Shown here one piece after another: positions 28,846 to 47,361 of a DNA stretch of 64,000 nt; the stretch's first letter is position 1, and every line of letters starts with the position of its first letter. The notes under the pieces are model-generated. The model had not been told where the DNA came from, did no database searches, and worked only from the letters and a program-made list of their open reading frames with translations. The stretch is taken from positions 132,341-196,340 of the forward strand of contig SCQP01000008.1 in assembly GCA_004299485.1 (NCBI GenBank), written 5' to 3'. Position numbers and translations under genes: made by a program. This stretch comes from Acidobacteriota bacterium. Its GTDB lineage: Bacteria > Acidobacteriota > Terriglobia > Terriglobales > SCQP01.

Positions 28846-31290
28846 CTATTCCTGGCGCAGGGCGCGGAGGGGGTCGGTGCGGGAGGCGCGGAGGGCCGGG
28901 ATCAGGCTGGCGAGGAGAGTGATGAGGGCCAGGAGGACTGCGGCGGCGATATAGCTGATGGGGTCGGCGGGGCTCATGCCATAGAGCAACGAGGTCATGA
29001 AGTGAGTGGCGAGGGCGGCCAGAATGACGCCGGCCAGAATGCCCCAGGCGGCGAGGCGCAGGCCCTGGCTCACGACCAGGCGCAGGAGATTCGGGGCGTC
29101 GGCTCCCAGTGCCATGCGGATGCCGTATTCACGGGCGCGGCGGGCGACGGTCGAGGCCATGACGCCGTAGAGGCCGACGAGGGCGAGCAGCAGGGCGAGA
29201 ATGCCAAAGCCGCTGAGCAGGACGCCGGACATCTTCGCTGTGAACAGCGGTGACTGCATGAACTGAGCGCCGGTTTCGACGTTGCTGCTGAGCATCTGCG
29301 GGTCGGCGTTTTGCAGAACGCGGCGGACCGGAGTGAGAAACGCCTGCGGGTTGCCGGCGACGTGGATCATCATCGTGGCGGGCATAGCGATGGTGGTGAG
29401 GGGATAAAAGTACGGACGGGGAGATTCGTCGAGGGAATTGTATTTGCCGTCGGCGGCGACGCCAACGATGGTCATGGGCGTGCCGCCCTGGCCGTTGCGC
29501 AAGAGCGTGTGGCCGACGGCATCACCGTGCGGCCAGAACTGCTGCGCCAAGGTCTGGTTGATGACGACGAGTTGGCGGCCGGAGGCCAAGTCGGCATCGG
29601 TAAAGCCGCGGCCGCTGACCAACGGCGTGCCGGACGCCTTGAAGAAATCCGGCGAAACTTGGGTGTACTCGGAGCGGAAGCCTTGCGCATGCGGCGGCGG
29701 CGCCATGCCCTCGGGCAGCACGAAAGTATCGGACTCGCCGACTTGCAGCGGCGGCTGCGTGGTGTAGCCGGCCGCGCTGACGCCGGGGACGGCGCTGACG
29801 CCAGCGCGCAGGTTTTTCAGAAACGTCTCCGCATCCTTTCCGGTGTGGCCGAGGGACTGCGGGTTAAGGGTGGTGACGACGATCAGGTGCTGGGTGTCGA
29901 AGCCAGGATTGATGGCGCGGGCACGGGCGAGCGAGCGCAGGCAAAGAGCCGCGCCCACCAGCACCATCATGCAGAGGGCGATCTGGGCCATGATGAAGCC
30001 GCTGCGGGTGCGGGAGCGAACGGCGCCGGAGCCGGGCGTGCCGTCTTTGATGTAATCGAGAATGCGCACACGCGCGGCTTGCAGTGCCGGCAGCAGGCCG
30101 AAGAGGATGCCTACCGCGAGAGCCAGGGCAAAAGTGAACCAAACGACGGTACTGCTCAGTGCTGGAGGCGCGGCAATGGGCGTATCGGCGGGTACGAGAT
30201 GCAGCAACAGTGGGTGCAAGCCTGCGGCGATCACCAGCGCGAGGCCGCCGGCGATGACGGCCAGCACCACGCTGTGGATCAGGCCCTGGCGGATGAGACG
30301 GCCGCGGCCGGCGCCCAGGGCGGCGCGCAAAGCCCACTCACGCTGGCGGCCGAGAGCTTGCGCCAGGAGCACGAGGGCGGCATTGGCGCAAGCAATGAGG
30401 AGGACGAGGCCGACGACAATTTCCAGCAGCAGAATGCCGCCGGTGGCGAAGCCGCGGAAGGGCAGCGGCACGGAGCCGAGAGGCGCGGCGAGACCGCCGA
30501 AGGTGGGCAGCTCGCCATTGGGGTATTCGCGGTCGAGGTGGTGCTGTACGGCATCAAGCTGGGCACTGGCGGCGGCGACGGTGACGCCAGGCTTGAGGCG
30601 GCCGACGGCGAACAGGCTGCGGTTGCCACGGCTTTCTAGAATCCCGGGCAAGCCCAGACGGTCGGACATGGTGACCGGCGCCCAGAAATTGCACTCGACA
30701 GCATGGAAGAGACCCTGGAAACCACGTGGGGCAACGCCAATAACCACGAAGGGCATGCCGTTCAGCGAAACCGTGCGGCCGAGTACGCTGCCGTCGCCAC
30801 CGAATTGCCGCTGCCAGGTGGCCCAGGAGAGCACGACCACGGGGCTGGATCCCTTGACGGCGGCTTCGTTTGGCAAAAACCAGCGGCCGAGAGCCGGGTG
30901 CAGACCGAGGACGTCGAAGTAATTACCCGAGACCAACTGGCCGGTCCAGGGCATGGGCGAAGCGCCGGGCGAAGGAATGACGTTGGGTTGGCTGACGGGA
31001 TTGTAGATAAGCAGGCCGGAGAGGCTGGTGGCTTGCTTTTCGTAGGCGAGATAGTCGAGGTAGCTGAGCGGGTAGTCGCCATTCAGCGCCGCGCGCGGCG
31101 AGGGATCGTGGGTGTAAACCTCGACCAGACGGTCGGGACTGGCGACGGCTGGTTTTTGCAGCAGCAGGCCGTTGGCGACGCTGAATATGGTGGCGTTGAC
31201 GCCGAGGCCCAGGGCGAGGGAGAGCACGGCGATGAGCGACAGCCAGGGGCTTTTGGCGATCAGACGAAGGGCATAGCGAAGATCACGCAT
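28846..31290 (-). CDS. ADOP-family duplicated FtsX/MacB-type permease
   Basis: 814 aa. It has the canonical MRDLRYALRLIAKSPWLSLIAVLSLALGLGVNATIF opening and two FtsX-like halves. Confidence 0.88.
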   Translation of the reverse strand: MRDLRYALRLIAKSPWLSLIAVLSLALGLGVNATIFSVANGLLLQKPAVASPDRLVEVYTHDPSPRAALNGDYPLSYLDYLAYEKQATSLSGLLIYNPVSQPNVIPSPGASPMPWTGQLVSGNYFDVLGLHPALGRWFLPNEAAVKGSSPVVVLSWATWQRQFGGDGSVLGRTVSLNGMPFVVIGVAPRGFQGLFHAVECNFWAPVTMSDRLGLPGILESRGNRSLFAVGRLKPGVTVAAASAQLDAVQHHLDREYPNGELPTFGGLAAPLGSVPLPFRGFATGGILLLEIVVGLVLLIACANAALVLLAQALGRQREWALRAALGAGRGRLIRQGLIHSVVLAVIAGGLALVIAAGLHPLLLHLVPADTPIAAPPALSSTVVWFTFALALAVGILFGLLPALQAARVRILDYIKDGTPGSGAVRSRTRSGFIMAQIALCMMVLVGAALCLRSLARARAINPGFDTQHLIVVTTLNPQSLGHTGKDAETFLKNLRAGVSAVPGVSAAGYTTQPPLQVGESDTFVLPEGMAPPPHAQGFRSEYTQVSPDFFKASGTPLVSGRGFTDADLASGRQLVVINQTLAQQFWPHGDAVGHTLLRNGQGGTPMTIVGVAADGKYNSLDESPRPYFYPLTTIAMPATMMIHVAGNPQAFLTPVRRVLQNADPQMLSSNVETGAQFMQSPLFTAKMSGVLLSGFGILALLLALVGLYGVMASTVARRAREYGIRMALGADAPNLLRLVVSQGLRLAAWGILAGVILAALATHFMTSLLYGMSPADPISYIAAAVLLALITLLASLIPALRASRTDPLRALRQE

Positions 31291-31296
31291 ATCCGA

Positions 31297-33744
31297 TTAC
31301 TCCTGACGCAGCGCAGGCAGGGGGTCGACGCGGGCGGCGCGCAAAGCGGGGATGAGGCTGGCGAGGAGGGTCACGGCGATGAGGAGCGCCACCGCAGCGA
31401 AGTAGCTGACCGGATCGGCCGGGCTCATGCCGTAAAGGAGTGAGGAGAGATAACGGGTGAGGAGCGCAGCCAGAACGACTCCGGCAAGGGTACCCCAGAG
31501 GGCGAGGCGGAGGCCCTGGCCGAGCACAAGGCGCAGCAAATTTCCAGAGCCGGCGCCCAGGGCCATGCGAATGCCGTATTCGCGGGTGCGGCGCGTGACC
31601 GTCGTGGCCATGACGCCATAAAGACCGACAATGGCGAGCAGCAGCGCCAAGATGCCGAAACTGCCGAGGAGCACGCTTGTCATACGCGCCGTGTAGAGCG
31701 GCAGTTCCATAAAGGCAGCGCCGGTCTGGATATTGGCGCTGAGCAAGTTGGGATCGAGCAATTGCAACTGCTTGCGGATGGCCGGCAAAAAGCTGGCCGG
31801 CGAGCCGGCGACGTGGATCATGAGCGAGCCGGGGGTGGCGATGGGAGTGAGCTCATACAGGTACGGGCGGGGGGATTCGTTCAGGTTGTGGTACTTGCCG
31901 TTGGCAGCGACGCCAACAATGGTCGCGGGCGGATGCGTGCTGTCGCCGGGGAAGGTGAACTCGTGCCCAACGGCGCCGCCCTGCGGCCAGAAATGGCGCG
32001 CGAGATTTTCGTTGATCACGATGAGGTGACGGCCGGCGGCGAGGTCGGCTTCGGTGAAGCCGCGGCCCGCCAGCAGCGGCGTACCGCTGGCGCGGAAATA
32101 ATTGGGCGAGACGCTGGTGACCTCGACGCGATAACCTTCGCCGTGAGTGCCAGGGGATGCGCCGGGGGGCAGGACCATGGCATCGGATTCGCCGGTCTGG
32201 AGCGGCACTTCGACGATCCAGGCGGCCGCGGTGACGCCGGGCACGCGATCGACCGCCTGACGAACCTGAAGCAGGAATTGATGCGCTGCGGGACCGTTAT
32301 GGCCGAGCGACTGCGGGCTGACATCATGGACGAGGACCAGGTGCTGGGTGTCAAAGCCGGGATTGATGGCGCGGGCGCGGGCGAGCGAGCGCAGGCACAG
32401 CGCCGCGCCGACCAGCACCACGACGCAGAGCGCCATCTGGGCGATGATGAAGCCGCTGCGCAGGCGCGAGCGCACGCCGCCGGAGCCGGGCGTACCGTCT
32501 TTGATGTAGTCGAGGACACGCAGGCGCGTGGCTTGCAGGGCAGGAGCGAGTCCAAACAGAATGCCGGCCACGAGCGCCAGAGCGAACGTAAAGGCGATGA
32601 GCGAGGCGCTCAAACCCGTGGGCGGCGCCAGCGGAAAGCCCGAGGGCCGCAGGCGGATCAAGAGCGGCCAGAGCAACTCGGCAATGCCGAGACCGAGGCC
32701 GCCGGCGATGAGGGCGAGAAGGACGCTGTGCACCAGGCCTTGGCGGAGAAGGCGGCGGCGGCTGGCGCCCAGCGCGGCGCGCAGCGCCCACTCGCGCTGA
32801 CGGCCGAGCGCCTGCGCCAGCAGCACCAGCGCGGTGTTGGTGCACGCGATCAGCAGCACCAGGCCGACAACGACTTCGAGCAGCAGAACAATGGAACTGG
32901 CCGAGCCGCGGAAGGGCTTGGGAATCGCCTCCAAGGGCACGGCGAGTCCGCCGAACGTTGCTAGTTCAGCCTTGGGGTATTGCTGATCGAGCTGGTGCTG
33001 GATCATGTCCAGCTCGGTCGAGGCCGCGGCGAGGGTCACGCCGGGGTTGAGACGGCCGACGGCGAGCAGCGCGCGGTGGGCACGCTGTTCGATGACGCCA
33101 GGTTCGCCGAGATGATCGGACATGGTGACCGGCGCCCAGAAATTGCACTCGACGCCGCCAAACAGGCCATGAAAACTCTCCGGGGCGACGCCAATGACGC
33201 TGTAGGGAGCGCCGTTCATTTGAACCGTGCGGCCCAGGATGCCGGGCAAACCGCCGAACTGGGTTTTCCAGATGGCGAAGGAGAGCACGACGACGGGGCT
33301 GGCGTCATTCACTGTATCTTCGGCGGAGACGAACCAGCGGCCGAGGGCCGGGTGGAGACCGAGGACATGGAAGTAGCCGTCAGTCACAAGCTCACCGGTC
33401 CAGGGCTGGGTTGACGCGCCGGGCGCGGTGACCACATTGACCTGGTTGAGCGGGCTGTAGGCGAGCAAGCCGGAAAGGCTGTGAGCGCGATGGAGGAAGC
33501 TGAGGTAGTCGGGATAGCTGAGTGGATAGTCGCCATTGAGCGCGGCGCGGGGGTCGGGGTCGTGGGTGTAGATTTCGACCAGACGCGAGGGATTGGCCAC
33601 CGGCGGCTTCTGCAGCAGCAGACGGTTGGCGAAGGCGAAGATGGTGGTGTTGGCGCCCAGGCCCAGCGCCAGCGAGAGCACCGCAACCAGCGACAGCCAG
33701 GGGCTTTTCGCGATCAGACGCAACGCATAGCGCAGGTCTCGCAT
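31297..33744 (-). CDS. ADOP-family duplicated FtsX/MacB-type permease (tandem paralog)
   Basis: 815 aa. It has the same N-terminal 20 residues as its neighbour and lies 6 nt upstream of it. Confidence 0.88.
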   Translation of the reverse strand: MRDLRYALRLIAKSPWLSLVAVLSLALGLGANTTIFAFANRLLLQKPPVANPSRLVEIYTHDPDPRAALNGDYPLSYPDYLSFLHRAHSLSGLLAYSPLNQVNVVTAPGASTQPWTGELVTDGYFHVLGLHPALGRWFVSAEDTVNDASPVVVLSFAIWKTQFGGLPGILGRTVQMNGAPYSVIGVAPESFHGLFGGVECNFWAPVTMSDHLGEPGVIEQRAHRALLAVGRLNPGVTLAAASTELDMIQHQLDQQYPKAELATFGGLAVPLEAIPKPFRGSASSIVLLLEVVVGLVLLIACTNTALVLLAQALGRQREWALRAALGASRRRLLRQGLVHSVLLALIAGGLGLGIAELLWPLLIRLRPSGFPLAPPTGLSASLIAFTFALALVAGILFGLAPALQATRLRVLDYIKDGTPGSGGVRSRLRSGFIIAQMALCVVVLVGAALCLRSLARARAINPGFDTQHLVLVHDVSPQSLGHNGPAAHQFLLQVRQAVDRVPGVTAAAWIVEVPLQTGESDAMVLPPGASPGTHGEGYRVEVTSVSPNYFRASGTPLLAGRGFTEADLAAGRHLIVINENLARHFWPQGGAVGHEFTFPGDSTHPPATIVGVAANGKYHNLNESPRPYLYELTPIATPGSLMIHVAGSPASFLPAIRKQLQLLDPNLLSANIQTGAAFMELPLYTARMTSVLLGSFGILALLLAIVGLYGVMATTVTRRTREYGIRMALGAGSGNLLRLVLGQGLRLALWGTLAGVVLAALLTRYLSSLLYGMSPADPVSYFAAVALLIAVTLLASLIPALRAARVDPLPALRQE

Positions 33745-36754: not shown

Positions 36755-37051
36755 ATGGAAGCTTTGGGAATGATTGAAACCAGAGGCCTGGTGGGTTCGA
36801 TTGAAGCCGCCGACGCCATGGTGAAGGCCGCCAACGTGGTCCTGCTGGGCAAGGAATATATCGGCGCCGGCTATGTGACGGTAATGGTGCGCGGCGACGT
36901 GGGCGCGGTCAAGGCGGCCACGGACGCGGGCGCGGCAGCGGCGCGGCGAGTGGGCGAACTGGTGAGCGTTCACGTGATTCCGCGGCCGCACAGCGAAGTC
37001 GAAAAGATTCTGCCGAACAAGGGCGTCATCCCCGCCGACAGCAAGAAGTAA
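36755..37051 (+). CDS. bacterial microcompartment shell protein, BMC-H (PduA/EutM-like)
   Basis: [79 protein letters not shown]. This is near-colinear with PduA as I remember it. Confidence 0.93.
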
Positions 37052-37063
37052 GGCGGAGCCGGC

Positions 37064-38782
37064 GTGGCCAACGCGGCACAATCCGTAGCTGAGGCACGCG
37101 AGCTGATCGAGCGCGCGCACGCGGCCTGGCAGACCTACCGCGAATTTTCACAGGCCCAGGTGGACGCCATTGTGGGCGCCATGGCGGCAGCCGCAACTGC
37201 ACATGCGGAGCGGCTGGCGAAACTGGCGGTCGACGAGACCACCTACGGCAAGGTCGCCGACAAAATCCAGAAGAACCTGTTTGCCTCGGAGAAGGTCTAC
37301 AGCGCCATCCGGGACATGCGCACCGTGGGCCCGCTCAGCGAAGACCGAGAGCGCGGCATCATCGAGATGGGGGTTTCGATGGGGGTAGTGGCGGCGATAC
37401 TTCCCTGCACCAACCCTACGTCGACTGCCATTTACAAGATCCTGATTTCGCTCAAGGCGGGTAACGCGATTGTGCTGAGTCCGCATCCGGCGGCGATGCG
37501 CTGCATTTGCGAGACCGTGGGGCTGATGCATCAGGCGGCGGTGGCGCAGGGTGCGCCGGGCGATCTGATCGGCTGCTTTTCGACGCCGACGCGCGAAGGC
37601 ACGCAGGAGATGATGTCGCACCGGCGCACCAAGGTGATTCTGGCGACGGGCGGCATGGGCATCGTGAAGGCCGCCTATAGCTCGGGCAAGCCGGCGTTTG
37701 GGGTGGGACCAGGCAATGTGCCGGCGTACATCGACCGCTCGGCGGATGTGGCGCGGGCGGTGGGGCACGTAGTCGCGGGCAAGAGCTTTGACTGGGGCAC
37801 GATTTGCTCCTCCGAGCAGGCGCTGGTGGCGGAGACGGCGCTGCGCGAGCCGATTCTGGCGGAGCTGAAAAAGCAGAACGTCTATTTGATGTCGCCGGAA
37901 GAAGCGGACAAGATGGGCAAGACGCTGATCCATCCGGAGACGTTCACGGTCAACGCCAAATGTGTCGGCCAGGCGCCGCAAAAGCTGGCAGCGATGGCGG
38001 GGTTTGGCGAGAAGGTGGGGCCGGAAATTCGTGTGCTGGCCGCGGAACTGGCGGGCATGGGCAAGCAGTATCCGCTCTCGGCGGAAAAACTGTCGCCGGT
38101 GCTGGCGCTGTTTTTTCTCCCGGACCGGGTGCGCGCGATGGACCGCTGCCGCGACCTGCTGCACTTTGGCGGCCTGGGACATACGTGTGTGATTCACGCC
38201 CAGGATGAAGCCGTGATCCGCGATTACGGAGCGCGCATGCCGGCGTACCGCGTGGTGGTGAACAGCCCCTCGCCGCAGGGATCGATTGGCCTCACGACAA
38301 ACCTGTTTCCAGCCATGACGCTGGGCTGCGGAGCGATTGGCGGCAACATCACCAGCGACAATATTGGACCGCAGCACTTGATGAACATCAAGAGAATCGC
38401 GTGGGACAAAGGGGAGCGAGTCAGCGGGTCAGCGGATCAGCGGGTCAGCGGGGTGGGGGCGCCGGTGGGATCCACGTGTACCTGTCAGCACGCCGCGCCC
38501 AAGGATGAGCTGCGAGCGACGGTCGAGCGCATCCTGGCGGAACGCGGCATCCATCCTGCCCCCGAGGCAACCCCGCCGGCCCCTGACCCCAGGCCCCTGA
38601 CCCCTGCCTTCACGCCGCCGCCACTACCGCCGAAGCCCAAGCCGGTGGCGTTTGTGTGCGAAGCGGATGTGCGCGAGGCGGCGAACGCGGGCAGGAAAAT
38701 TGCGATTGGCCCAAAGACTATCGTGACGCCCGCAGCGCGGGATCTGGGGCGTGAGCGCGACATATTTTTGGTCACCACGTAG
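37064..38782 (+). CDS. acylating (CoA-dependent) aldehyde dehydrogenase, AdhE-N/EutE/PduP-like, with a ~125-aa C-terminal extension
   Basis: GTG start. [12 protein letters not shown], catalytic-Cys context [11 protein letters not shown], and [24 protein letters not shown] at the end of the ALDH fold (near residue 445). An extension follows, containing an amphipathic helix, a Pro-rich linker and a ~45-aa terminal module. Confidence 0.88.
38421..38452. repeat. octanucleotide tandem repeat (TCAGCGGR x4) inside the ALDH coding sequence
   Basis: TCAGCGGG TCAGCGGA TCAGCGGG TCAGCGGG, read directly. It encodes ..[11 protein letters not shown].. at the junction between the ALDH fold and the extension. 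Confidence 0.9.
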
Positions 38783-38807: not shown

Positions 38808-39935
38808 ATGCTCGACACGCGCGAGGTGCTTGCTCTGCCGCAAATTGGGGAGCCGGTTCTCACCGCCTATCTCGACACCGATCCTGCCAATCCCCGTAAC
38901 CAGGGCCGCAAGGGGCCGGCAACATGGCTGCGCTCGGAAGCCCGGCGGCTAGTGGCGGCGTGGGGACCGTCGGAGCGAGAAGCCTGCCTGGCGCAGGCGG
39001 AACGAGTCGCCGAGTATCTGATGGACCGGCGCGGCGGAGGATCGAAGGGGCTGGTGGTATTTGCGGGTCCCAGGACTTGGCGCTTGCTGCCGCTGCAGGT
39101 GCGCGTGGAGGAGGAAATCTACTGGGGCGAGCCGGCGTTGGGGCAACTGCTATGGCTGCTGGACGAACATCAGCCCTGTGGGATCGTGGTGGTCAGCCGG
39201 GGCGGAGCGCGGTTTTTCCGGTACCGGATGGGTGAGATCGAGGAGGATGCCGCACGGCCCCTGCAGCTTGACACGTCGCAGTGGCGTAAGATTACGCGGG
39301 TGATGGGGCCCGGCGACGAGAAGGACATTTTTGAGCGCCGGCTCGCGGCCAACCACCAGCGCTTCTACGAGAGCGTGGCTACGGAAACGCAGCGATGGAG
39401 CGAGCGCGAGCGGTTGGAGCCGGTGCTGCTGCTGGGAGACACGAAAGCCGTTGCGCAGGTGCAGGCAGCGCTGCCGGAAGCATTTGCGGCGCGGGTGCTC
39501 AGCTCGGAGCGGAATATCACCTGCGAACGCGCCAGCGAAATCGTGGCGGTCGCGGAGCCGCTGATCCAGCAGTGGAAGCGCGAGCGGGAGCGCGCGGATG
39601 TGCAGCGCCTGCTGGAACAGCGGACGCGACCGGATGTGGTCACCGGTTTCGAGGCGACGCTGAACGCGCTGCAGGAGGGTCGCGTGCGCGAACTCATCGC
39701 CATGCGCGACCTGCGCGGGCGTGTGCGCGCCTGCCCTTCGTGCGGCTGGGTGGAGCGGGGCGGGCCGGCGGAGTGTCCCCAGTGCGGCCATGAACGGCCA
39801 GTGCAGTCGCCGCGCGCGGTGCTGCCGCAATTGGCGCAGGCGCGGGGCGTGCCGGTGGAGATTGTGGCCGGCCCAGCGGCCGAGGAGCTGGAGCGTGGCG
39901 CGGGAGGCCTGGCCGCTTGGCTCAGGGCGGCGTAA
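38808..39935 (+). CDS. bacterial eRF1-like (baeRF1 / Vms1-VLRF1-like / host-attachment family) protein with C-terminal zinc ribbon
   Basis: The layout matches baeRF1 families as I remember them. N-terminal ..PVLTAYLDTDP.., then GLVVFAG, PxLxxLLWLLDEHQPCGIVVVSRGGARFF, then a helical RFYESVA region and LLLGDTKAVAQVQAALP. CPSCGW..CPQCG lies at residues ~309-330. Confidence 0.7.
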   Translation: MLDTREVLALPQIGEPVLTAYLDTDPANPRNQGRKGPATWLRSEARRLVAAWGPSEREACLAQAERVAEYLMDRRGGGSKGLVVFAGPRTWRLLPLQVRVEEEIYWGEPALGQLLWLLDEHQPCGIVVVSRGGARFFRYRMGEIEEDAARPLQLDTSQWRKITRVMGPGDEKDIFERRLAANHQRFYESVATETQRWSERERLEPVLLLGDTKAVAQVQAALPEAFAARVLSSERNITCERASEIVAVAEPLIQQWKRERERADVQRLLEQRTRPDVVTGFEATLNALQEGRVRELIAMRDLRGRVRACPSCGWVERGGPAECPQCGHERPVQSPRAVLPQLAQARGVPVEIVAGPAAEELERGAGGLAAWLRAA

Positions 39936-46483: not shown

Positions 46484-46888
46484 TCAGCCCGAGGGCGCGA
46501 GAAAGACGTCGGCGGAGAGGCTGAAGCGGGTGCTCAGGCGGCGAAGCTGTTCCAGCGTGAGTTTGCGCTGGCCGGCAAGAAACATGGACACTGCGCTCTC
46601 GGACCCAAACTGAGGAATCAGATCGCGTTGCCTGAGGTGCTGCTGCGCCATGAGAAACCGCACGATCGATACGGGATCAGCCGCCGGGATGGGATAGTGA
46701 GCTCGCTCGTAGCGCTCCACGAGCAGGGTCAGCAGTTCGACTGCCTGTGCTTCCGCCCGAGACGGATGCTCCAGGGCGGTGAGCTGGAATAGTGCGTCCG
46801 TGTACGACTCGAGCTCTTGATCGTTATGAATGACACGCGGGGCGCCATGCGCGATCATCTCTGCGGGATTGGCAAGAACTGATTTCAT
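46484..46888 (-). CDS. higA: HigA-type antitoxin / HTH regulator (partner of the HigB-family toxin)
   Basis: 134 aa. The C-terminal HTH-like segment is LIPQFGSESAVSMFLAGQRKLTLEQLRRLSTRFSLSADVFL. It lies immediately downstream of the HigB-family gene. Confidence 0.7.
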   Translation of the reverse strand: MKSVLANPAEMIAHGAPRVIHNDQELESYTDALFQLTALEHPSRAEAQAVELLTLLVERYERAHYPIPAADPVSIVRFLMAQQHLRQRDLIPQFGSESAVSMFLAGQRKLTLEQLRRLSTRFSLSADVFLAPSG

Positions 46889-47361
46889 TGTGGCTCGCCA
46901 CTTTTTGCCCTGGTCGCTCCCGTTGGTCGCTTGGAGTGCGGGCTTCGATTCCCGGCAGGGCCCGCCCGCTGGCGCTCAGGGCTCCTCCAAGCTGCCGCCG
47001 GATGCGCAAACCTCCTGTCCCAATTCCCAGGGTTGTCATACTCCTTGTGCGTCAAGAACGAGCGAATGTACACGTGGCCCTCGGTCTGCCTCCCGTCGAT
47101 CGTCTTCGCGTAATGAATGACGGTGATCAGCCTGTACCGGTTGCGCCGGACATTGAAGATTACATAACCATTGACATAATCGACGTCCTTAAACATATCT
47201 CGCACTTCGGCAAAATTGCGCCAGCGGACCGCCTCAACGATGGTCGTCCAAGCTTCCACTTCACTCGCTGCATCGGGGTGCTGCTTCATGGCCTCGCGCA
47301 GATGCCTGCGGGTGACGAGATGCACTTCCTTACCGTACTTCACGAGTCGTGAAGTTGTCAA
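46885..47361 (-). CDS. higB: HigB-family mRNA interferase toxin (PF09907-like) with a repeat-derived C-terminal tail
   Basis: ..HLVTRRHLREAMKQHPDAASEVEAWTTIVEAVRWRNFAEVRDMFKDVDYVNGYVIFNVRRNRYRLITVIHYAKT..VYIRSFLTHKEYD. The last ~40 residues (..AAAWRSPERQRAGPAGNRSPHSKRPTGATRAKSGEPQ*) are encoded by the repeat. Confidence 0.75.
   Translation of the reverse strand: MTTSRLVKYGKEVHLVTRRHLREAMKQHPDAASEVEAWTTIVEAVRWRNFAEVRDMFKDVDYVNGYVIFNVRRNRYRLITVIHYAKTIDGRQTEGHVYIRSFLTHKEYDNPGNWDRRFAHPAAAWRSPERQRAGPAGNRSPHSKRPTGATRAKSGEPQ
46890..46999 (+). repeat. 110-nt repeat family 1, copy 3
   Basis: Full-length copy. It begins 1 nt from the higA ATG (CAT-T-GTGGCTCGCC on the + strand). Confidence 0.9.

Follow-up and report, generated by a model that had tools for sequence, protein, structure and literature searches.

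What does a long C-terminal tail do on an aldehyde dehydrogenase whose gene lies next to a gene for a shell protein of a bacterial microcompartment (BMC)? The question is raised by a 64-kb window, the whole stretch of DNA analysed here (64,000 nucleotides of contig SCQP01000008.1), from an Acidobacteriota bacterium of the order Terriglobales. The window encodes, at 37064..38782 of the forward strand, a 572-aa CoA-acylating aldehyde dehydrogenase (ALDH; GTG start, stop codon at 38780-38782), preceded by a 98-aa BMC-H shell protein. Acidobacteria are abundant soil bacteria and, to our knowledge, their ACI-type compartment has never been studied experimentally. How an enzyme core is fastened to its shell is only now emerging, one system after another, with CcmN, CsoS2, the N-terminus of PduB and, in 2025, EutQ. 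On balance we lean towards a reading in which this gene encodes an ACI ALDH whose tail would act as a core-shell tether, with a helix that joins the cargo core and a terminal module that binds BMC-H.

The catalytic ALDH fold (residues 1-447; 37064..38404, + strand) ends at ..NIKRIAW (W447) and forms the confident core of an AlphaFold2 (AF2) model of the full-length protein, which was built from an alignment of 38 sequences. Pfam Aldedh aligns to residues 6-311. The NCBIfam model TIGR02518 (acetaldehyde dehydrogenase, acetylating) aligns to residues 6-493 (E 5e-170) and therefore already takes in the helix of the tail. Its score of 566.5 bits is below the curated equivalog cut-off of 620.1. On this profile evidence the ALDH is a close relative of the type I enzymes of TIGR02518/IPR013357, and no equivalog of them.

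Beyond W447, a preliminary description of this DNA had quoted an extension (38405-38782) and divided it into four parts. Its translation is identical to ours and corresponds to the last 125 residues of the 572-aa open reading frame (ORF), and both the AF2 model and the homologues confirm the succession of linker, helix, Pro-rich linker and module. Helix, Pro/Ala linker and module are kept in 119 of the 120 best homologues (55-93 % identity, 542-681 aa), the exception being a truncated fragment of 423 aa. Such a layout goes far beyond chance. The module is also present at 76 of 80 related genome loci, and the remaining four are cut by contig ends. A BMC-H gene lies directly 5' of the ALDH gene at 77 of the 80 loci. 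A survey of orthologues for the extension and an association with shell genes had both been proposed as checks on the earlier reading; the layout is found in all 119 untruncated close homologues, and the association holds as well.

The terminal module (residues 528-572; 38645..38779, + strand) is predicted to be a mini-domain of beta-alpha-beta-beta-alpha-beta type. Its elements are strand 528-531, helix 533-542, strand 546-554, helix 556-564 and strand 568-570, with predicted local distance difference test (pLDDT) values of 88-97 in the full-length model, and the mean pLDDT is 97.2 when the module is folded alone from 46 sequences. Residues F530, A539, T552, T555, P556, A558 and L561 are invariant. 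With a profile of the module, a search of 1.84 billion representatives yielded 720 clusters (E<=1e-3); among the 150 matches listed, the larger clusters are essentially only ALDH C-termini, a set that gives no view of other architectures. A fold search of the PDB with the module model gave no match at E<=0.001, and the subdomains of IF2/eIF5B (TM-score about 0.67) were rejected as fold relatives, being generic beta-alpha-beta look-alikes. Pfam has no family for the window copy of the module, and a tblastn search with a module variant against plasmids returned noise only. At one related locus (L020, 16733-16888), a 51-aa ORF located 4.8 kb 3' of the ALDH gene copies the last ~32 module residues (E 1.2e-11). 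The two copies have similar short sequences on their flanks, and the ORF resembles a fragment of the gene's 3' end that was duplicated.

The relatives of the module are found in BMC proteins. When the 46 module variants were scanned against 18,950 NCBIfam models, they matched BMC-associated families only, bar one stray RNase Z. TIGR02536 was matched by 27 of the 46 variants (best 1.5e-4; model positions 164-204 of 207), two PduM models by 12 and 6 (positions 120-159 of 162), the EutQ model by 7 (positions 8-47 of 233) and EutT by 3. All of these BMC-family matches fall at protein termini, and residues 1-50 of E. coli EutQ and two EutT-like N-termini match the same TIGR02536 segment. Profile alignment (hhalign) pairs the module with E. 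coli EutQ (residues 5-42; E 8.9e-5), with E. coli EutT (3-42; E 7.4e-5) and with a joint EutQ and EutT profile (95.5 %, E 1.3e-8). Against seven non-ALDH copies from four organisms the alignment extends over 39 columns (97.5 %, E 5.8e-12), in which module positions 5-43 correspond to EutQ 3-43. Composition-preserving shuffles reached the real score in 0 of 20000 cases for EutQ, 1 of 20000 for EutT and 0 of 20000 for Salmonella PduM. Single-sequence phmmer searches with EutQ and EutT N-termini against 19,839 acidobacterial ORFs gave sub-significant matches (E 0.1-10), mostly on ALDH modules. Two other matches of these searches (L037, 6426-7421; L023, 1416-2399) were discarded, as they are helical-repeat proteins.

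Real EUT2 and PDU loci were obtained by tblastn of EutB and of an approximate PduM sequence against PLSDB; a search with full-length E. coli EutQ returned only proteins that are >86 % identical and so added no diversity. From five loci with eut genes, four of which carry BMC eut operons, we searched 1149 six-frame ORFs with a hidden Markov model of the module. Its top matches were, in this order, the C-terminus of a C. difficile TIGR02536 protein (E 1.4e-4), the N-terminus of E. coli EutQ and the N-terminus of a Cetobacterium EutT-like protein. The module is located at the C-terminus of TIGR02536 proteins in the eut operons of C. difficile, Brevibacillus and Cetobacterium, and at the N-terminus of EutT-like adenosyltransferases in those of C. 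difficile and Cetobacterium.

These alignments give good support to homology of the module with EutQ, EutT and TIGR02536; homology with PduM, whose copy lacks the TP helix cap, is probable. The preliminary description had likened the module, with low confidence, to a short domain from Eut/Pdu-associated proteins of Firmicutes. Because the module is homologous to termini of EutQ, EutT and TIGR02536, that comparison was right, and the module matches the TIGR02536 C-terminus and EutT N-terminus of C. difficile, Brevibacillus and Cetobacterium.

Two observations concern the relatives themselves. In the eut operon of E. coli K-12 (L081, 20503-22004), the first ~50 residues are common to EutQ and EutT, at 32 % identity and ungapped, with I5, T6, R11, H14, T31-P32 and A34-R35-E36 invariant. 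No Pfam model covers EutQ 1-84 or EutT 1-94, and we found no mention of this shared N-terminal unit in the EutQ and Eut literature consulted. The three TIGR02536 proteins (L082, 15261-15986; L084, 20226-21029; L085, 21100-21696) begin with a helix that resembles an encapsulation peptide (EP; e.g. NLVDLITEEIYKKI). The layout from EP to module is the same as in PduM, and TIGR02536 may therefore be a Gram-positive counterpart of the core-shell linkers EutQ and PduM.

For EutQ, the function of such a terminus has been examined in Salmonella. In vivo, EutQ without residues 9-41 (helices H1/H2) stays with the cargo while the shell is detached (Yang et al. 2025 Sci Adv, PMC12487888), and the N-terminus of EutQ is required for the pull-down of EutM (Held et al. 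2016 Sci Rep, PMC4827028). Residues 62-99 (H3/H4) bind the EPs of EutC and EutE, and residues 1-99 suffice for the targeting of green fluorescent protein (PMC12487888). Two helices are predicted in our module, as in EutQ H1/H2 (PMC12487888). PduM carries an EP at its N-terminus, and core and shell come partly apart on its loss (PMC12108088). A TIGR02536 protein is predicted to stack on EutL and to trimerise (PMC13181095). The EutQ of Gram-positives is devoid of H1/H2 (PMC12487888), in keeping with TIGR02536 and EutT as the proteins that provide the module there.

The second element of the tail is the EP-like helix (residues 480-493; 38501..38542, + strand), which AF2 predicts at pLDDT of about 70-78. 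Type I BMC ALDHs (IPR013357) are defined by a C-terminal EP (Sutter et al. 2021, Nat Commun 12:3809), and in the EUT2 enzymes of C. difficile and Brevibacillus a comparable helix forms the C-terminal end (e.g. ..KEELINLLVQKLVKELA*). As in EPs, which are helices of ~15-20 residues, the segment is predicted to be alpha-helical, and a flexible linker of low conservation (residues 448-479) connects it to the enzyme. It is not terminal, since 79 residues follow it. The preliminary description had called an internal EP followed by an extra domain atypical, which is true, but such an arrangement has been published for this ALDH family (Sutter et al. 2021, Supplementary Data 2). Residues L483, V487, I490 and L491 lie on one helix face (resultant 0.79, reached by 4.4 % of shuffles; p~0.04), and R489 and L491 are >=90 % conserved. 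From its position, the helix prediction and this pattern, we infer that the helix may function as an EP.

Given the findings on EutQ and PduM, the predicted stacking of a TIGR02536 protein on EutL, and a three-part arrangement that EutQ 1-99 shows in reverse order, we propose that the tail is a tether between core and shell that is built into the enzyme, its two functional elements being set apart by a flexible Pro-rich spacer. The gene would encode the ALDH of an ACI-type BMC, in the usual two-gene satellite cassette with BMC-H. Helix 480-493 would be the normal C-terminal EP of the family and would associate with EPs or cargo of the enzyme core. The 45-residue module would attach to shell hexamers in the manner of EutQ 9-41, most plausibly to those of the co-transcribed BMC-H. 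If these ALDHs are oligomeric, which we assume from general knowledge, there would be several tethers per enzyme, which could thereby cross-link the core with the shell. Distances among BMC-H proteins and among modules remain correlated once the ALDH core is accounted for (partial Mantel test, r 0.22, 0 of 2000 permutations); this is weak support, to which we give little weight.

Several points count against this proposal. The domain is very small, the alignment behind the homology has about 39 columns, and for PduM the picture is uneven: the score of E. coli PduM was reached by 449 of 20000 shuffles, and two PduMs are weaker than that of Salmonella. The helix has an ordinary Eisenberg hydrophobic moment (0.21, exceeded by 76 % of shuffles). 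Of the earlier claim of an EP-like amphipathic helix, what stands is a predicted helix at the EP position with its hydrophobic residues on one face; the moment is unremarkable. It is also low for known EPs, such as that of E. coli EutE, and discriminates neither this helix nor those. The link between EutQ H1/H2 and the shell comes from in vivo deletions and from microscale thermophoresis on the full-length protein, and its authors place the shell site at the EutM-EutL interface (PMC12487888). ACI shells consist of BMC-H and three BMC-P, with BMC-T merely occasional (Sutter et al. 2021). The partial Mantel test is permissive for related sequences. Finally, no BMC main locus lies in the 64-kb window, which is the part of the genome that was scanned.

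Another way to read the module is as a second cargo-cargo element that condenses or oligomerises the core, by binding other cargo or EPs or by self-association. Like EPs, it is terminal, and its carriers (EutT, EutQ, TIGR02536 and PduM) are believed to reside in the BMC interior. A 45-residue unit of this fold may need a partner to bury its core, and TIGR02536 is predicted to trimerise (PMC13181095). Yet Salmonella EutQ deprived of residues 9-41 is still found together with cargo, while its association with the shell is lost, and EP-induced nuclear magnetic resonance shifts are absent from H1/H2 (PMC12487888); moreover, the ALDH already has a helix for association with the core. We consider a cargo-cargo role unlikely.

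If the tether proposal holds, one small portable domain would underlie the attachment of core to shell in organelles of both the EUT and the ACI type, and perhaps in those of the PDU type. This would provide a function for the domain left as "unknown" by the 2021 catalogue, would suggest a job for the uncharacterised TIGR02536 proteins of Gram-positive eut operons, whose EutQ is without the region, and would offer a compact helix-linker-domain tag for engineering cargo loading. It also makes the ALDH tail a concrete and cheaply testable hypothesis for the ACI compartment. More tentatively, and with a probability that we place short of an even chance, the module may represent an unrecognised, widespread class of BMC shell-adaptor domain, common to EutQ, EutT, TIGR02536, PduM and the ACI ALDH, that serves as a second targeting or anchoring signal beside the EP. 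In Acidobacteria it would be fused to a core enzyme, and ALDH and BMC-H together would form a core-shell hub without a separate adaptor.

The BMC-H gene (36755..37051, + strand) encodes a EutM-like protein with a PRPH motif (Pfam BMC 5e-29; NCBIfam EutM 7e-40). Its stop codon is separated from the ALDH start by 12 nt, the two genes form a cassette, and a plausible ribosome-binding site precedes each, that of BMC-H being GGGAGGG. The pair is preceded by recJ, and the G+C content of the window is 64.7 %. Within the window, tblastn with BMC-H revealed no second shell hexamer gene, and phmmer with E. coli Eut proteins no EutN-, EutL-, EutS- or EutD-like ORF. Likewise, within <=10 kb of the 80 loci we identified no other shell gene and no EutD-type phosphotransacetylase (Pfam 01515); the phosphotransacylase (PTAC) family pfam06130 was not queried. 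The best homologues and the 80 loci belong almost all to Terriglobales, Acidiferrales, Vicinamibacterales, Solibacteraceae or Acidobacteriota metagenome-assembled genomes (MAGs).

These surroundings bear on whether a closed compartment is involved at all. The Terriglobales pair could be a stand-alone two-component assembly, with the enzyme on sheets or tubes of shell protein and no main locus. Neither the window nor the <=10 kb around each of the 80 loci yielded a BMC-P, BMC-T or PTAC gene (with pfam06130 again outside the queries), and the catalogue assigns ACI mainly to subdivisions 4 and 6, not to subdivision 1 (Sutter et al. 2021). Satellite placement of the pair, with main loci elsewhere in the genome, is nonetheless the published norm for ACI (Sutter et al. 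2021), and we regard the stand-alone assembly as improbable.

We also weighed whether the module could be unrelated to shells, as an adaptor like the peripheral subunit-binding domain (PSBD) of 2-oxoacid dehydrogenase E2 (PF02817) or as a small ligand-binding or regulatory domain. In that role it would bring in another enzyme, such as a phosphotransacylase or dehydrogenase, or act as a metabolite sensor. A search of PDB sequences brought up only the PSBD motif, with the E3/E1-binding domain of branched-chain E2 as the best match (GRKTLATPAVRNLAMENNI, E 0.014); the module has in common with it the helix-start motif T-P-x-A/V-R-x-L-A/G-x-E, and Pfam E3_binding is weakly matched by 8 of the 46 variants (best 0.049). 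This match spans 19 residues only, and the window's own module does not match Pfam E3_binding. The AF2 module has four strands whereas the PSBD is all-helical, its fold has no PDB counterpart at the threshold given above, and BMC proteins match it much more strongly and consistently. We therefore rejected the PSBD identity as a 19-residue look-alike that differs in predicted fold and context, and a shell-unrelated role of this kind seems to us very unlikely.

The two linkers are predicted to be flexible. Linker 1 (residues 448-479; 38405..38500, + strand) is of low complexity, poorly conserved and predicted to be disordered, with pLDDT <50 and no regular structure at residues 455-479. The Ser/Gly repeat of the preliminary description does not hold up: it is merely this non-conserved low-complexity stretch, in which a Cys pair is conserved instead, C472-T-C474-Q-H476 (38477..38491, + strand). 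The pair is the only conserved feature of the variable linker between ALDH fold and helix; among the 119 homologues, CxC occurs in 97, often as CxCQH, CxCxH in 37 and CxxC in several others. The pair may be connected with the small Cys/His-rich proteins that have been described from main loci of ACI. The notion that the tail is mainly a metal or redox appendage, in which the Cys pair and module Cys532 bind metal or form regulatory disulfides, draws on the presence of CxC in so many otherwise unconserved linkers, but it has only a slim chance of being correct, since the module Cys is Ser or Gly in 74 of the 119 homologues, CxC is missing in about a fifth, and nothing ties the pair to the module, whose conservation is independent of it and which also occurs in proteins without the motif. 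The Pro-rich linker (residues 494-527; 38543..38644, + strand), of low AF2 confidence, ends in a conserved KP(K/R)P motif just before the module; KPxP is found in 78 of the homologues and PPP[LVI][PA] in 23.

Some homologues have architectural variants of the tail (P0146, P0147, P0204, P0221 and P0256; P0034-P0047). Some ALDH variants have two tandem amphipathic helices ahead of the module, with the Cys pair after the second helix, and others (660-681 aa) have long linkers made of repeated PSRLSEP/AVGWPSRL units. One locus (L019, 1-1730) is a real exception to the gene pairing, with a module-bearing ALDH and no BMC-H upstream. Upstream of that ALDH lies a 372-aa ORF, which by eye resembles a GGDEF diguanylate cyclase. 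BMC-H/ALDH pairs of acidobacterial type also occur at five loci (L042, L062, L064, L077 and L078) in MAGs labelled Bacillota, Bifidobacterium, Kiloniellales or Acidimicrobiia. These labels are probably the result of binning error, with transfer as the alternative.

Elsewhere in the window, a gene resembling baeRF family 10 or MSMEG_1130-type ribosome hibernation factors (38808-39935) starts 25 nt 3' of the ALDH gene and encodes a CxxC...CxxC zinc ribbon at its C-terminus. Of the closest loci, three (L001, L003 and L004) have such a gene after the ALDH, and none of the more distant ones does. On the minus strand, two tandem paralogous ORFs of 814 and 815 aa (28846-31290 and 31297-33744) have near-identical N-termini (MRDLRYALRLIAKSPWLSL...) and resemble the duplicated orphan FtsX-type permeases that are common in Acidobacteria. 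Also on the minus strand, two adjoining small ORFs of 134 and 158 aa overlap by 4 nt (46484-47361) and, as judged by eye, resemble a HigA-type antitoxin and a HigB-type toxin.

Among known systems, the first to compare is the ACI satellite ALDH. According to the catalogue, the AldDh of ACI is encoded at a satellite locus, often with BMC-H, and has an EP near its C-terminus that is followed by a domain of ~50 aa (Sutter et al. 2021, Supplementary Data 2), whereas the ACI main locus includes a class II aldolase with an EP, a hydroxyacid dehydrogenase and a BMC-P triplet (Sutter et al. 2021). Our gene has an acidobacterial host, a satellite locus with BMC-H, an EP-like helix and a terminal domain of about that size, and the related loci include the ACI groups Vicinamibacterales and Solibacteraceae. 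It differs in that the window copy and its closest relatives are from Terriglobales (subdivision 1), while ACI is found mainly in subdivisions 4 and 6. The ALDH is thus a further, Terriglobales member of a published class; its architecture has been published and the function of its domain has not. The catalogue (Sutter et al. 2021) gives the terminal domain neither relatives nor function, and our literature search found no later paper on it. What we add is the link from this "unknown" domain to the shell-binding region of EutQ and to EutT, TIGR02536 and PduM, which hints at a general shell-adaptor domain.

The type I ALDHs (IPR013357/TIGR02518), mainly of EUT2 loci, resemble our enzyme in their catalytic domain and in the position of the helix. 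The EUT2 enzymes stop with the helix, whereas the acidobacterial ALDH continues for 79 more residues. In PduM and EutT the same motif stands at a terminus (PduM 120-159 of 162; EutT 3-42), and PduM also carries an N-terminal EP; its similarity to the module is weaker, and the body of the protein lies between that EP and the C-terminal module. TIGR02536 of non-proteobacterial EUT2 operons provides the closest single-family match in its C-terminal ~45 residues and starts with an EP-like helix. Unlike the ALDH, it is a stand-alone protein of ~200-270 aa with a central domain and no enzyme, and its complex with EutL is a predicted one (PMC13181095).

In EutQ of Salmonella and E. coli, a flexible linker connects what appears to be the same mini-domain with cargo-handling amphipathic helices. 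There, the domain is N-terminal and the order is reversed relative to the ALDH tail, the remainder of the protein is a cupin acetate kinase, and EutQ is a separate adaptor, whereas in the ALDH the cargo enzyme itself carries the domain as a fusion. The EutQ site is proposed to lie at the EutM-EutL interface, and ACI shells are mostly without BMC-T. In its profile similarity over the whole unit, its terminal position and a gene that adjoins BMC-H, the acidobacterial module fits the mini-domain found at the N-termini of EutQ and EutT and at the C-terminus of TIGR02536.

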